A stretch of 64,000 nt of DNA from Deltaproteobacteria bacterium (GCA_040218735.1 JAVJQW010000012.1:46880-110879), one strand, 5' to 3'. Shown: positions 37,906-46,600, counted from the first letter of the stretch. Numbers and translations are program-made. Notes: generated by a model from the letters alone, not told the origin.

Positions 37906-38760
37906 TCACCGGATCGGCCCGAGGCCGTGCGCGTAGGGGCTGGGCCGAAGGAGCGAGGCGAGGCGGACGTTGGCCGCGTGGGCGATCGGCCCGTCGAAGG
38001 TGTGGCTCGCGATGGCGGCGACTCCGGGCGCCCGCGCCGCGAGATCCAGGCACGCAATCAGGCCGCCCAGGACCATCGGCTTGAGGACGATCGCGACCAC
38101 CTCGGGGTGCGCGGCGCGCTCGATGCCCTCGGGGTGTCGGAGGGATTCGTCCAAAGCGACCGGGACATCGAGGTCGATCCCGGGCTCCTCCACGAGCTCC
38201 ACCGGGAGGCCCCGGAAGCGGTCGGCGTCCTCGGGGCGCAGCGTCCCGTTGGCGTCGACGCGCACCTTCACCCGTTCGGCGGCGCGGCGAACGGCGGAGA
38301 GCTCGGTGCCGAGGTCGCGCCCGATCTTGATCTTCACGGTGCGAGCGCCGGCTTCGATCGCGCGTTCGAGCGAGGCGGGATCGTAGGCGTCGACGAGGTG
38401 CGCGGAGTCGAAGGTTCGCGAGGGTGCGCCCCACGGGTCGCCGACGAGATCGATCAGCGCGGTCTCCACGCCGAAGCGGACGGAGGGCACCACGATCGGC
38501 GTGAGGAGCTCGCGGAGCGTGTCCACGTTTCGCACGACGTCGGCGTCGACGAGGTCGAGCGCCGCGAGCGCTGCCTCGGCCTCTTCGTAGGTGTCGGGCG
38601 CGTAGCCCTCGAGGGGCGCGGCGACGCCCACGCCGGTCATGTCGTCGGCGAAGACCGTGATGCGGAGCCCGCGCCGTTCGCCGAAGCGCTGCTTCGCGTT
38701 GCCCGCGCCGACCGGCGCGCGCCACACCAGCGGCTCCACTTCGACGCGTTCAATCCTCAC
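37906..38760 (-). CDS. menC: o-succinylbenzoate synthase (enolase superfamily)
   Basis: GTG start overlaps the menA stop (GTGA). KIKIGR, VDANG and LDES metal-ligand motifs. The ORF upstream of this start is R-rich. Confidence 0.75.
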
Positions 38761-39629
38761 ACGGCGATCCCGACCGCGAAGAGCACCGAGAAAACGAGCA
38801 GGAGCTTCGCGGTGCCGGCGAGCGCGCCGTTGAGCACGACGCCCTCCTCGCGCCGGACGACGAGCCACTGCTTCAGCGCCAACGGGATCGTCACGAGCGG
38901 GAGCAAGATCCAAGGCGAGGCCAGCGCCAGCCCCCACATCACGATCGGCGTGGCGTAGGACGTGAGGATCAGCACCAGCCACTCCGCGCGCGCGAAGCCG
39001 CCGCCGAAGCGCACCGCGAGCGTTCGTTTGTCGGCGTGCACGTCCTGGTGGCGATCGCGGAGGTTGTTCACTGCGAGGATCGCCGTCGCGAGCGCACCCA
39101 CGGGGATGCTCGCGAGGGCGCCGCGGACGGTGACCGCGTCGGTCTGCACGTACGACGTCCCGAGGACCGCGACGAACCCGAAGAAGAGGATGACGAACAC
39201 GTCGCCGAGGCCGACGTACGCGAGCGGATACGGCCCGGCGGTGTAGAGGATGCCGCTCGCGATCGACAACACGCCAATCGCCACGATCACCGGCCCGGAG
39301 ATCCACGTGAGGTACACGCCGCAGAGCGTCGCGAAGAGGAACGCGACGATCATCCCGAGGCGAACGGCACCCGGTGACAGCAGCCCCGCGGCGACGGCGC
39401 GCGTCGGCCCCAGGCGCTCCTCGGTGTCGGCGCCCTTCTCGTAGTCGAACACGTCGTTCGCGAAGTTGGTGCCGATCTGAATCGCCATCGCCCCGAACAG
39501 CGCGGCGAGCGCAGCGGGCCAGCGCAGCTCGCCCTCCGCAAACGCGACCGAGGTCCCGACCGCCACGGGAGCGACGGCCGCGGTGAGCGTCGCGGGACGC
39601 GACGCGAGCAACCAAGCGCGTGCGCTCAC
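38757..39629 (-). CDS. menA: 1,4-dihydroxy-2-naphthoate polyprenyltransferase
   Basis: UbiA-family polytopic protein. GTG start overlaps the menD stop. Confidence 0.8.
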
Positions 39630-41293
39630 GAGCGTACCTCCTCGCGCAGGGCCTTCAGCATCGGCGCGGCGTCGCTCGGCGGGACGCGCGCGTGGACGAC
39701 GGTCGCGCCCCGTCGTTGGAAGCCTTCGGCCAGCGCGGCGCGGAGCGCGGCTTCGTCGTCGACGCTCCGGTAAGCGACGCCGAACGCCTTCGCGGCGCTC
39801 TCGAAGTCGATGCGCGGCGGCGTCGTGAAACACGCGAGCACGGCGGGCGGGGGATCGGTGTCCATGAGCGGGAGCATCTCGAAGATGCGGCCGCCGTCGT
39901 TGTCGATCACCACGACGACCAAGGGCGACTCGGCGCGCGCGAGGAGCGCGAGGGAGCCGACGTCGTGCGCAAACGTAACGTCTCCGATCAACACCGCGAG
40001 CGGGCCTTCGCTACGGGACGCAGCCCCCGCCCCGCCCGCGAGCATGCCGTCGATCCCGTTGACGCCGCGCTGATGCAAGACAGGTTGCACAAACGGATCC
40101 GCATAGAGATCGAGGTGGCGGATCGCGAGGCTGTTGCCGACGAAGATCGAGGCCTCTTCGGGGAGCGCCGCGGCAACGGCGCGGGTGACGTTCGCCTCGG
40201 ACCACGAACGCTGGGCGATGAGACCGCGCACCCGGCGGTCCTGCTCGCGCCAGCGGTTCAGCCATTCGGGTTCGGCGCGGCTCTCGGCTTCGAGCAGCGA
40301 CGCGGCCGTCGCTTCGATGTCTCCGACCACGATCTGCGTCGCGCCGCCGAACGGCTCGGAGTCGGCGGTCTCGTCGATGACGAACGTCGGCACGTCGCGG
40401 TGGCGCGCGAAGAACTTCGGCCACGCGGTCGGCGTCGGCGGCGCGCCGAACCGGATGACGACGTCGGGGGCCAGGTCGTCGCGCGTGAGCAAGACGTCCG
40501 CGGTGGAGATCGCATCGGCGCTCCGGAGCTGACTCGCGACGTCCGCGAGCAGCGGCGCACCAATGTGCTCCGCGAAGCGTGCCACGGCGCCGTGACGACG
40601 GCGCATTGGACCGGCGACGACGAGCGGGCGCTCCGCGGTCTGTAGCGCCTCGACGACCGCTGCGACGGCCCCGGCCTGCGGGCGAGCCGCGTCGATGTGC
40701 ACCAGGTTCGCGAGCCGTTCGTCGACCGCGCGCTCCAACGCCAGCTCCGCCTCCATCGTCGCGTCGAACGCTTCCAGCGGCTTGCGCGCGCGGAAGTTCA
40801 CGTGCACCGGACCCTTCCGAGCGTAATGCACCGCGCGCGCCGCGCTGCGGGCGAGCCCGTCGAGCGCCTCCGGATTCGCGTCGGGGAGCCCCAGCTCGAT
40901 CTCGGCGAGGACGTGGCGTCCGAACAGACCGCGTTGGTCCATCGCCTGGGGCGCACCGACGTCGACCAGCTCGAACGGTCGGTCCGCAGTGACGACGATC
41001 AGCGGCAGCCGCGAAGCCTCGGCTTCGAGCACCGCCGGATAGAAGTGCCCGCCCGCCGTGCCCGACGTACAGAACACCGCCGTCGGGCGCTCCGTGACCC
41101 GGGCCTGCCCGAGCGCGAAGAACGCCGCGGCGCGCTCGTCGAGGATCGAGTGGATCCGAAGGGCGGTCTCGCGAACGGCCGCCACGATCAACGGCGTGTT
41201 GCGCGACCCCGGCGCGATGACGACGTCCTCGACCCCGGCGCGACGCAGGGCACCGACGAACAGCCGCGACCAGGCGGTGAGGAGGTTCTTCAC
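39626..41293 (-). CDS. menD: 2-succinyl-5-enolpyruvyl-6-hydroxy-3-cyclohexene-1-carboxylate synthase
   Basis: ThDP enzyme. GTG start ([35 protein letters not shown]) overlaps the menF stop. Confidence 0.8.
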
Positions 41294-45507: not shown

Positions 45508-45523
45508 TGTCGGACCTCCTTTC

Positions 45524-46600
45524 TCAAGCCTTCCGCGAGAGCGCGGCGCGGGCGACGACTTCGAGGGCGTCGCGAGCGGCGCTCGGCGGCAGCGTGGACA
45601 ACAGCTCGATCGCGCGATCCACGTGGGTGGTCGCGAGCGCCGTCGTCTCTTCGATGGCACCGGTCTTCTTCAGCGTCTCGGCGACGCGACCGGCGATGTC
45701 GGCGTCGACGCGCCCCTCGTTGGCGGCGCGTTGGAGCCAGGGGCGTAGCGACGGGTCCCGCTCCAACGCGAGGAGGATCGGGTACGTCACCTTGCCCTCT
45801 TCCAGGTCGATGAAGAGCGCCTTACCGGTCTGGTCGGCGTCCCCCGCGAGGTCGAGCGTGTCGTCGACGATCTGGAACGCAAGACCGAGGTGGCGGCCGT
45901 AGTCCTCGAGCGCACGCACCGCCGGCTCCGGGAGCCCGCCGGCGCGGGCGCCGGCCTGCATCGCCCACTTGAAGAGCGACGCCGTCTTGCCGTCGATGAC
46001 CGAGAAGTACACCTCGCGGTCGGCCATGAGGCGTCCGCGATGCTCGAGCTGGAGCGACTCCGCGACGATCATCGTGTCGATCGTCTCGAGCAGCTCGTCG
46101 AGGACGCGGTCGACGCCGGCCTTGCGGACGCGGCGGAGCGCCTCGATGAGGAGCCAGTCCCCGGCGAAGACACTCGCGGCGTTCCCGTACAGCAGGCGCG
46201 CGGTCGGCTCGCCGCGACGCACGGTGCCCTGGTCGACGACGTCGTCGTGCAGCAGGGTCGCGCTGTGGACGAGCTCCACGGAGACGGCGAGCTCACGGGC
46301 GCGCTCGTCGAAGCCCGACCCGGCGCGCGCGGCGAGCGCGACGCAGACCGGGCGGAGGCGCTTGCCTTCGAGCGACAGCAGGTGCCGCGCGCTCTTCTGC
46401 ACCAGGTCGTCGGCGGCGCCGAGGCGGGACAGGACCATCTCCACCTCGACGAGGTCGCCGGCCACGAAGCCGGCGAGATCCGAGATGGCGACCGCCAGCT
46501 GCTGCATCCCCTTGGCTTCACAGACGCTCTGTAGGCGGTTGAGGACCTGGGTCTCCACCGGCGGTTCGATGTTTTGGGCCAGCACTGCTCCATCCGTCAT
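45524..46600 (-). CDS. polyprenyl diphosphate synthase (IspB/octaprenyl-type)
   Basis: Starts at MTDGAVLAQN. Two aspartate-rich motifs, LLHDDVVD and FQIVDDTLD. Coordinates may be off by 1 nt here because the printed sequence and the ORF track are inconsistent around 46.5-46.7 kb. Confidence 0.8.
   Translation of the reverse strand: MTDGAVLAQNIEPPVETQVLNRLQSVCEAKGMQQLAVAISDLAGFVAGDLVEVEMVLSRLGAADDLVQKSARHLLSLEGKRLRPVCVALAARAGSGFDERARELAVSVELVHSATLLHDDVVDQGTVRRGEPTARLLYGNAASVFAGDWLLIEALRRVRKAGVDRVLDELLETIDTMIVAESLQLEHRGRLMADREVYFSVIDGKTASLFKWAMQAGARAGGLPEPAVRALEDYGRHLGLAFQIVDDTLDLAGDADQTGKALFIDLEEGKVTYPILLALERDPSLRPWLQRAANEGRVDADIAGRVAETLKKTGAIEETTALATTHVDRAIELLSTLPPSAARDALEVVARAALSRKA

Follow-up and report, generated by a model that had tools for sequence, protein, structure and literature searches.

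In a 64-kb stretch of DNA from a Deltaproteobacteria bacterium (GCA_040218735.1, JAVJQW010000012.1:46880-110879), which is referred to as the window in the following and has a G+C content of about 70%, eight consecutive minus-strand genes between positions 46600 and 37906 probably constitute a translationally coupled menaquinone (MK) operon, which unites head-group genes and a tail gene with the genes of two precursor-supply enzymes. From the first to the last, the genes code for a long-chain prenyl-diphosphate synthase, a DAHP synthase (DAHPS), a class II HMG-CoA reductase (HMGR), UbiE/MenG, MenF, MenD, MenA, and MenC. In such an operon the head group would be made by MenF, MenD, and MenC and would be prenylated and methylated by MenA and UbiE/MenG, whereby the tail would be polymerized by the IspB-like synthase. 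DAHPS would provide the entry to the shikimate/chorismate route and the class II HMGR the committed step of the mevalonate route. The most likely start of transcription is in the 185 bp upstream of ispB, from where the transcript would continue through menC, possibly into the adjacent ferrochelatase gene hemH, and start/stop overlaps would couple the translation of seven consecutive genes. Given a shared transcript and coupled translation, aromatic, isoprenoid, and quinone-assembly capacity would be expected to rise and fall together. A divergently encoded MarR-like protein probably controls the operon via two TTCAAY-N4-RTTGAA palindromes.

Gene Content of the Operon

Gene identities were assigned by curated NCBIfam and Pfam profile matches, which agreed at all eight positions with the identities proposed in a preliminary description of this DNA. 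The first gene (45524..46600; this and all following operon genes are on the minus strand) codes for an IspB/HepT-like long-chain trans-polyprenyl diphosphate synthase of 358 aa (PF00348, 200.9 bits) with both DDxxD motifs, which read LLHDDVVD and QIVDDTLD in the translation. The first-motif region, HSATLLHDDVVD, carries small residues upstream of the motif; the corresponding region of Escherichia coli IspB we take to be HTATLLHDDVVD. The top NCBIfam matches are HepT (GerC3_HepT) and octaprenyl-PP synthase, all of them below the equivalog cutoffs. The protein resembles long-chain enzymes of the IspB/HepT type, and a long-chain product is predicted. The start at 46600 agrees with that of an independent gene caller and with homologue lengths of 340–363 aa. 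The second gene (44533..45507) encodes a type I-beta DAHPS of 324 aa with an N-terminal regulatory domain (NF006421, 354.9 bits, cutoff 335). The match spans the full length including the N-terminal domain (protein residues 1–318 to positions 1–324 of the 338-position model), and the top PDB match is the Thermotoga maritima DAHPS 1rzm (253.6 bits, residues 27–313). An identity as KDO8P synthase was rejected, as the KDO8P models reached 108 bits against cutoffs of 242–314.

The HMGR gene (43355..44536, 393 aa), which is described in the section on the HMGR below, is followed by those of the demethylmenaquinone methyltransferase UbiE/MenG (42639..43358, 239 aa; TIGR01934, 224.9 versus 158; NF001244, 224.5 versus 216), the isochorismate synthase MenF (41290..42642, 450 aa; TIGR00543, 261.4 versus 224.75), the SEPHCHC synthase MenD (39626..41293, 555 aa; TIGR00173, 383.1 versus 244.2), and the 1,4-dihydroxy-2-naphthoate (DHNA) polyprenyltransferase MenA (38757..39629, 290 aa; NF004751, 318.9 versus 264). 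The last gene (37906..38760) codes for a probable o-succinylbenzoate (OSB) synthase MenC of 284 aa, or of 273 aa if it is started at the alternative codon 30 nt downstream that is chosen by the gene caller. Its score with TIGR01927 (85.6) lies below the cutoff of 130.55, and the identity is based on the Pfam domains MenC_N and MR_MLE_C, on the enolase-superfamily motifs KIK (KxK), DAN, EEP, DES, and LKP in the translation, and on the conserved position of the gene in related loci. MenF, MenD, MenA, and MenG of the classical OSB menaquinone set, and a probable MenC, are all present in the operon.

Junctions and Evidence for One Transcription Unit

Start/stop overlaps had been reported for almost every junction, and 4-nt overlaps were indeed found at six of the seven, namely ATGA at 44533, 43355, and 42639, and GTGA at 41290, 39626, and 38757. 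Between ispB and the DAHPS gene there is instead a gap of 16 nt with a strong ribosome-binding site, GAAAGGAGG, ahead of the GTG start of the DAHPS gene. An NTGA motif by itself would occur by chance at roughly three of every four TGA stops; the overlaps are regarded as real because the family profiles align near the downstream N-termini and the independent gene caller picks the same starts. In five of the six overlaps the downstream protein aligns to its family profile from residues 3–23, the exception being MenF, which aligns only from residue 58. The gene caller placed the same overlapping starts in the window sequence (locus L086) and in its relatives, except for menC. Thus, the menA/menC overlap is the least certain one, since the gene caller starts menC 30 nt further downstream.

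The region 36500–47600 was scanned for consensus promoters, with a threshold of 9 of 12 positions, and for terminators. The scan gave a single weak terminator-like site, where 3.3 would be expected by chance, and a single promoter-like site (45527..45500; 0.2 expected), and thus no excess of either type of site inside the operon. Such a scan is insensitive here, as the consensus is a poor guide to high-GC (70% GC) myxobacterial promoters. The promoter-like site and this insensitivity could be taken to favor an arrangement in which the genes are adjacent but do not form one unit, with internal promoters giving separate transcripts for the tail (ispB, DAHPS, HMGR) and the head group (ubiE to menC). 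The site was however rejected as a DAHPS promoter, since its -10 element sits inside the DAHPS start codon region and could not serve this gene. Furthermore, six of the seven junctions are without intergenic DNA, and related loci retain both the gene order and the overlaps across 63–85% HMGR identity, so that we consider separate transcripts unlikely. The proposal of a single transcription unit made in the preliminary description thus holds on the sequence side, with regard to both the missing intergenic DNA and the conserved order, and from this we infer the co-transcription of the eight genes, which the sequence supports well.

The operon may extend further in the window. The ferrochelatase gene hemH (36815..37861, minus strand; TIGR00109, 232.9 versus 124.6) lies 44 nt downstream of menC, and the gap contains no hairpin and no T-run. 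It is possible that hemH is co-transcribed with the operon here, which would join haem and quinone cofactor genes. The link is not conserved, as a 4HBT thioesterase gene on the opposite strand, which is missing in the window, intervenes in the related loci L001 and L088. A role of this protein as DHNA-CoA thioesterase is possible.

Conservation of the Gene Order in Related Loci

The window HMGR has thousands of homologues, of which the best 120 are 64–100% identical. Gene context was inspected for every close homologue with a fetched locus, whereby L086, which is the window sequence itself, was excluded. This left 10 distinct related loci (L001, L002/3, L004/5, L006, L007, L008, L009, L087, L088, and L089) with HMGR identities of 63–85%. 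The HMGR gene is followed by ubiE, menF, and menD in all 10, and ispB lies directly upstream of HMGR or of DAHPS-HMGR in all nine loci that reach that far. Where the loci extend far enough downstream, an optional menH or menB is followed by menA, usually by menC, and by an optional menE, and most of the junctions are 4-nt overlaps. The DAHPS gene between ispB and HMGR is found in the window, L001, L008, and L088. Since this gene order recurs in 10 distinct related loci, chance can be ruled out, and the comparison with relatives suggested in the preliminary description shows that the layout is shared by a whole clade and is not peculiar to one genome. The loci come from metagenome-assembled genomes labelled Polyangiales, Polyangiaceae, Myxococcales, and Myxococcota, but also Acidobacteriota and Thermoanaerobaculia; the latter two are represented by L006, L087, P0066, and P0110, with HMGR identities of 66–68%.

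The location of an HMGR gene inside a men operon had been called unusual, and this is confirmed by the class II HMGR loci outside the clade. In 0 of 78 such loci, which are 43–53% identical and derive from Myxococcus, Corallococcus, other Polyangia, Bacillota, Chloroflexota, Alphaproteobacteria, and archaea, a gene for MenF, MenD, MenA, MenC, or DAHPS was detected (flank up to 10 kb, E<=1e-5). The novelty lies in a conserved set that combines a regulator gene, ispB, an optional DAHPS gene, the short-flap HMGR gene, ubiE, and men genes. In a literature search, neither an HMGR gene within a men operon nor a class II clade with a truncated flap was found to be described, an absence that is no proof of novelty.

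Upstream of the operon, the window contains a lysA-dapA-dapB cluster (55224–58377, minus strand) and an rsfS-agmatinase-like gene pair (47416–48615, minus strand). Both occur in the same relative order in L088, so that synteny around the men module is conserved in this lineage.

The Men-Linked HMGR Is a Class II Enzyme With a Short C-Terminus

The preliminary description had placed the HMGR in class II, and profile, sequence match to solved structures, and predicted fold all agree with this assignment. The protein reaches 337.7 bits with TIGR00532 (cutoff 259.95), but only 47.4 with the class I model TIGR00533 (cutoff 441.8). It is 42–45% identical to solved class II HMGRs in the structural alignment and matches them with 295–308 bits by sequence. 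Its AlphaFold2 model (pLDDT 81.6) has the class II fold with a large domain and a non-Rossmann small domain and yielded a Foldseek TMq of 0.86 at 42% identity to the Pseudomonas mevalonii enzyme (4i4b/1qax). Over the solved class II enzymes of P. mevalonii (1qax/4i4b), Delftia acidovorans (6dio), and Streptococcus pneumoniae (5wpj), which share the fold, the TMq is 0.82–0.86, and it is 0.74–0.76 for Enterococcus faecalis HMGR (7m3h). With human class I HMGR the model gives a TM score of ~0.63–0.65 at ~20% identity. The catalytic residues E83, K261, D277, and H374 are invariant in a 14-sequence alignment and align with the same Glu/Lys/Asp/His set of P. mevalonii 1qax (Glu83, Lys267, Asp283, and His381 in P. 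mevalonii numbering), and the motifs ENV, EEPS, DAMGAN, THNKG, GQDWR, and GHM are conserved. A class I HMGR and a pseudogene were both considered and rejected.

In P. mevalonii HMGR, D146, L148, and L152 are determinants of NADH specificity (PMC10070635). The residues I147, R149, and R153 of the window enzyme align to these positions, and the segment in question, AAIPRMVQRGGG, resembles the segment AYPSIVKRGGG of the NADPH-type S. pneumoniae enzyme. From these residues, the HMGR is predicted to use NADPH and to be biosynthetic, although the TIGR model is labelled "degradative".

In contrast to the solved class II enzymes, the window HMGR lacks the distal part of the C-terminal flap. After the catalytic His374 the protein has only 19 residues, and members of the men-linked clade have 19–29, whereas the median is 48 for 76 class II HMGRs outside it. 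The VAxxAGAxG...IRxxxA segment, which is conserved in other class II enzymes, is absent from the C-terminus of the men-linked HMGR (window 43355–43414). A single helix (residues 370–392) makes up the C-terminus of the model, and flap helices 2 and 3 are missing. The three-helix C-terminal flap has been described as the "persistent 3-helical bundle" of class II HMGRs (PMC10070635). The men-linked HMGR lacks this three-helix arrangement, which is typical of class II but is not a catalytic requirement. The modelled fold thus suggests that only the first flap helix, with the catalytic His, remains and that the protein is a structural variant of class II. Similar short tails (HMRLHKRK...) also occur, independently, in HMGRs of Promethearchaeota (Asgard; L032, L046, and L071) and Thermoflexales (L069). 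As archaea depend on mevalonate-derived isoprenoid lipids, an HMGR with such a tail is probably functional in the Asgard archaea.

The flap truncation could also indicate that the men-linked protein is an HMGR homologue with a new function, which reduces not HMG-CoA but another acyl-CoA, such as one that arises in the synthesis of the naphthoquinone. Nine invariant substitutions are specific to the clade, several of them beside the active-site motifs MSENV, DAMGANLVD, VGGST, and ALAGEGIQ, and the gene is always apart from other mevalonate genes, which would fit such a change. However, the identity of 42–45% to biochemically proven class II HMGRs extends over residues 4–382, the four catalytic residues and the motifs are retained, the TIGR00532 score is above the equivalog cutoff, and the Asgard HMGRs are similarly short-tailed. 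Moreover, the gene does not regularly stand in for a men step that is missing, since the presence of menB, menE, and menH varies independently of HMGR. We therefore regard a new function as very unlikely.

Origin of the Tail and Copy Number of the HMGR

In a neighbor-joining tree of 87 HMGR sequences, the men-linked HMGRs were monophyletic in 200 of 200 bootstraps. They are 64–89% identical within the clade and 45–60% identical to other sequences, the nearest outgroups being Myxococcota enzymes. The distinctness of the clade, which is separate from the canonical Myxococcota HMGRs in mevalonate operons, would be explained if the men-linked HMGR were an extra pathway-dedicated paralogue that boosts the flux into the MK tail and moves horizontally with the men operon, a canonical HMGR being kept in a mevalonate operon. 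It fits with this that the copies from Acidobacteriota and Thermoanaerobaculia, at 66–68% identity, are closer to the window enzyme than the non-clade HMGRs are, including those of other Myxococcota. No genome with both HMGR types was seen among the matches listed, however; a search for diphosphomevalonate decarboxylase with a query from L017 gave no contig shared with a men-linked HMGR among the best 120 matches, which is a search of low power. Two long contigs that were inspected, L090 and L091, belong to other organisms and hold canonical mevalonate-squalene operons. A single relocated housekeeping HMGR would fit equally well. We consider an extra paralogue a serious option, though one that is slightly less likely than not; the cross-phylum spread and the distinct clade tip the balance slightly in favor of a module that is transferred as a whole. 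A more specific version would be that the men-linked HMGRs form an unrecognised class II subtype with a one-helix flap and NADPH-type residues, which is dedicated to MK-tail supply and has been inherited, and exchanged horizontally between Myxococcota and Acidobacteriota, within a self-contained regulator-ispB-HMGR-men module. This version is tentative and, as a whole, rather doubtful. According to it, the HMGR may be a second copy in some hosts or an orphan beside a different isoprenoid route. A literature search yielded no information on which isoprenoid pathway these Acidobacteriota use.

It is plausible that the menaquinone tail is mevalonate-derived, as had been proposed. With respect to the head group, neither menB nor menE nor menH was detected in the window, where no crotonase, AMP-binding protein, or MenH-type hydrolase was found among the open reading frames (ORFs) scanned. 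Some of these genes are kept in the operon in relatives (menH and menE in L002 and L004; menH, menB, and menE in L087; menB and menE in L088), so that the window version is a reduced one, and menB, menE, and menH are presumably located elsewhere in this genome. About 20 kb from the men operon, the window carries a gene for an ABC1/UbiB-type atypical kinase (17373–19499, minus strand; PF03109, 211 bits) beside a DUF938 methyltransferase-like gene (16562–17398, plus strand); the UbiB family is associated with quinone biosynthesis.

A Divergent Candidate Regulator and Two Candidate Operators

Divergently from ispB, a gene on the plus strand (46786..47406) codes for a winged-helix (MarR-like) protein of 206 aa, a candidate pathway-specific regulator, which matches Pfam MarR_2 (30.2 bits, cutoff 27) and DUF7343 (29.9 bits) with E-values of ~5e-7. 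A PDB search with the protein gave only marginal winged-helix matches (top E-value 9e-4), so that no ligand can be deduced from them. Homologues of the regulator adjoin ispB in L001 (86%), L088 (62%), and L089 (57.5%), and more distant ones (32–38%) lie upstream of ispB in L004/5 and L009.

The 185-bp intergenic region between ispB and the regulator gene contains two copies of the palindrome TTCAAY-N4-RTTGAA, which are the only ones in the 64 kb, compared to 0.02 expected. The first one (O1, 46719..46734), TTCAATAGCCATTGAA, overlaps with its right arm the -35 element of a putative sigma-70-like promoter, and the second one (O2, 46623..46638), TTCAACGAATGTTGAA, is located just upstream of the ispB ribosome-binding site. 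The putative promoter (46695..46723, minus strand) comprises the -35 element TTGAAC (46723..46718), a 17-nt spacer, and the -10 element CATAGT (46700..46695), the latter being conserved in L001, and it would be the promoter of the operon. Among the relatives, the palindrome is present twice in L001, once in L089, and in L088 once with one mismatch and once with two. In loci without a close divergent regulator homologue, no palindrome with up to two mismatches was found within 400 nt upstream of ispB. O1 and O2 are thus probably operators of the adjacent MarR-like regulator. Some MarR-type regulators respond to quinones. By analogy, it might be that the regulator is a quinone- or redox-responsive feedback switch.

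Taken against the proposed coupled menaquinone operon, the following points have to be weighed. Internal promoters may exist, as a consensus scan catches high-GC myxobacterial promoters poorly, and the putative operon promoter itself matches only 8 of 12 consensus positions, which is below the threshold of 9 used in the scan. The family assignment of the regulator is weak (E-values of ~5e-7 with Pfam and ~1e-3 with PDB). The flap truncation removes two helices of a persistent class II feature, so that normal kinetics of the HMGR are not guaranteed. Finally, the 64-kb window holds no mevalonate-pathway gene besides HMGR, in addition to the missing menB, menE, and menH.

Comparison With Known Systems

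Classical OSB menaquinone operons are menFDHBCE of E. coli and menF-menD-menH-menB-menE-menC of Bacillus subtilis. The window operon has in common with them the clustered co-directional genes for MenF, MenD, and MenC and the same pathway chemistry, whereas it adds menA, ubiE/menG, a tail synthase gene, DAHPS, and HMGR, and menB, menE, and menH are not found in the window. In B. subtilis, which uses the methylerythritol phosphate pathway, the hepS-menG(menH)-hepT (gerC) operon groups a prenyl synthase with the MK methyltransferase. Here, the likeness is that a long-chain prenyl-diphosphate synthase is co-operonic with an MK methyltransferase, but the gerC operon is without head-group and precursor-supply genes.

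The mevalonate operons of Myxococcota carry an HMGR of the same family (class II, 45–60% identity) in the same phylum. Their order is IDI2-HMGR-MVK-MDD-PMK in Myxococcus (L012) and IDI2-MVK-MDD-PMK-HMGR-SQS-SQS in the Polyangia loci L090 and L091, with the MVK-to-SQS core also in L017, and in L053 (Polyangia) the HMGR is likewise part of a mevalonate operon. In these operons the HMGR gene lies beside those of other mevalonate enzymes and ~47–66 residues follow the catalytic His, whereas the window HMGR gene lies among men genes and only 19 residues follow. The mevalonate operons of L090 (8016–16362), L091 (8014–16579), and L017 (6617–13320) run into two squalene/phytoene-synthase-family genes, to which L090 and L091 add an amine-oxidase-type gene (hpnCDE-like); in these two loci, a short prenyl synthase and a UbiA-family prenyltransferase are encoded ~5 kb upstream.

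With regard to the solved class II HMGRs, the window enzyme shares the catalytic set and, in its cofactor-helix residues, is like the NADPH-using S. pneumoniae enzyme, but differs from all of them by the two missing flap helices.

Pathway-specific DAHP synthases are known from product clusters, PhzC being an example. Mevalonate genes are embedded in actinomycete gene clusters for prenylated aromatics (PMC4044012). The likeness is that precursor-supply enzymes are encoded inside the cluster of a prenylated aromatic product; the actinomycete clusters hold a whole mevalonate cassette and make secondary metabolites, whereas the window operon holds HMGR only and would serve a primary respiratory quinone. 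As embedded precursor-supply genes such as DAHPS and HMGR are typical of such clusters, it might be argued that the operon makes a specialised prenylated naphthoquinone, like the Streptomyces meroterpenoid clusters with mevalonate genes, and not respiratory menaquinone. Against this, only canonical men enzymes and no tailoring enzymes are encoded, and the relatives add only MenH, MenB, and MenE. In addition, MenA, MenD, MenF, and UbiE score above equivalog or subfamily cutoffs, the synthase resembles long-chain IspB/HepT, and the neighbors are housekeeping genes (hemH, dapAB, lysA, rsfS). A secondary metabolite is thus extremely unlikely as the product, and a respiratory menaquinone operon remains the preferred reading.

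Other Genes of the Window

Further away from the operon, an ORF at 30538–31320 (plus strand) contains an IS200-like Y1 transposase domain (PF01797, E=1.6e-8) and has a G+C content at third codon positions (GC3) of 0.81, which is lower than that of its neighbors. A full-length phosphoenolpyruvate carboxylase gene (13291–16083, plus strand; PF00311, 892 bits) is unrelated to the operon.

Implications

No single enzyme chemistry is new here, and the result adds detail to what is known without overturning it. If the proposed organization is true, this would be a natural respiratory-quinone operon in which one translationally coupled unit contains the rate-controlling steps of the shikimate and the mevalonate pathway, the two routes that supply its precursors, a design that metabolic engineers deliberately build for vitamin K2 production. 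The clade of naturally flap-truncated class II HMGRs could be used to test what share of the three-helix flap is needed in catalysis and cofactor exchange. Furthermore, the regulator together with its candidate operators would provide a compact system for studying the control of menaquinone biosynthesis in uncultured Myxococcota and Acidobacteriota.

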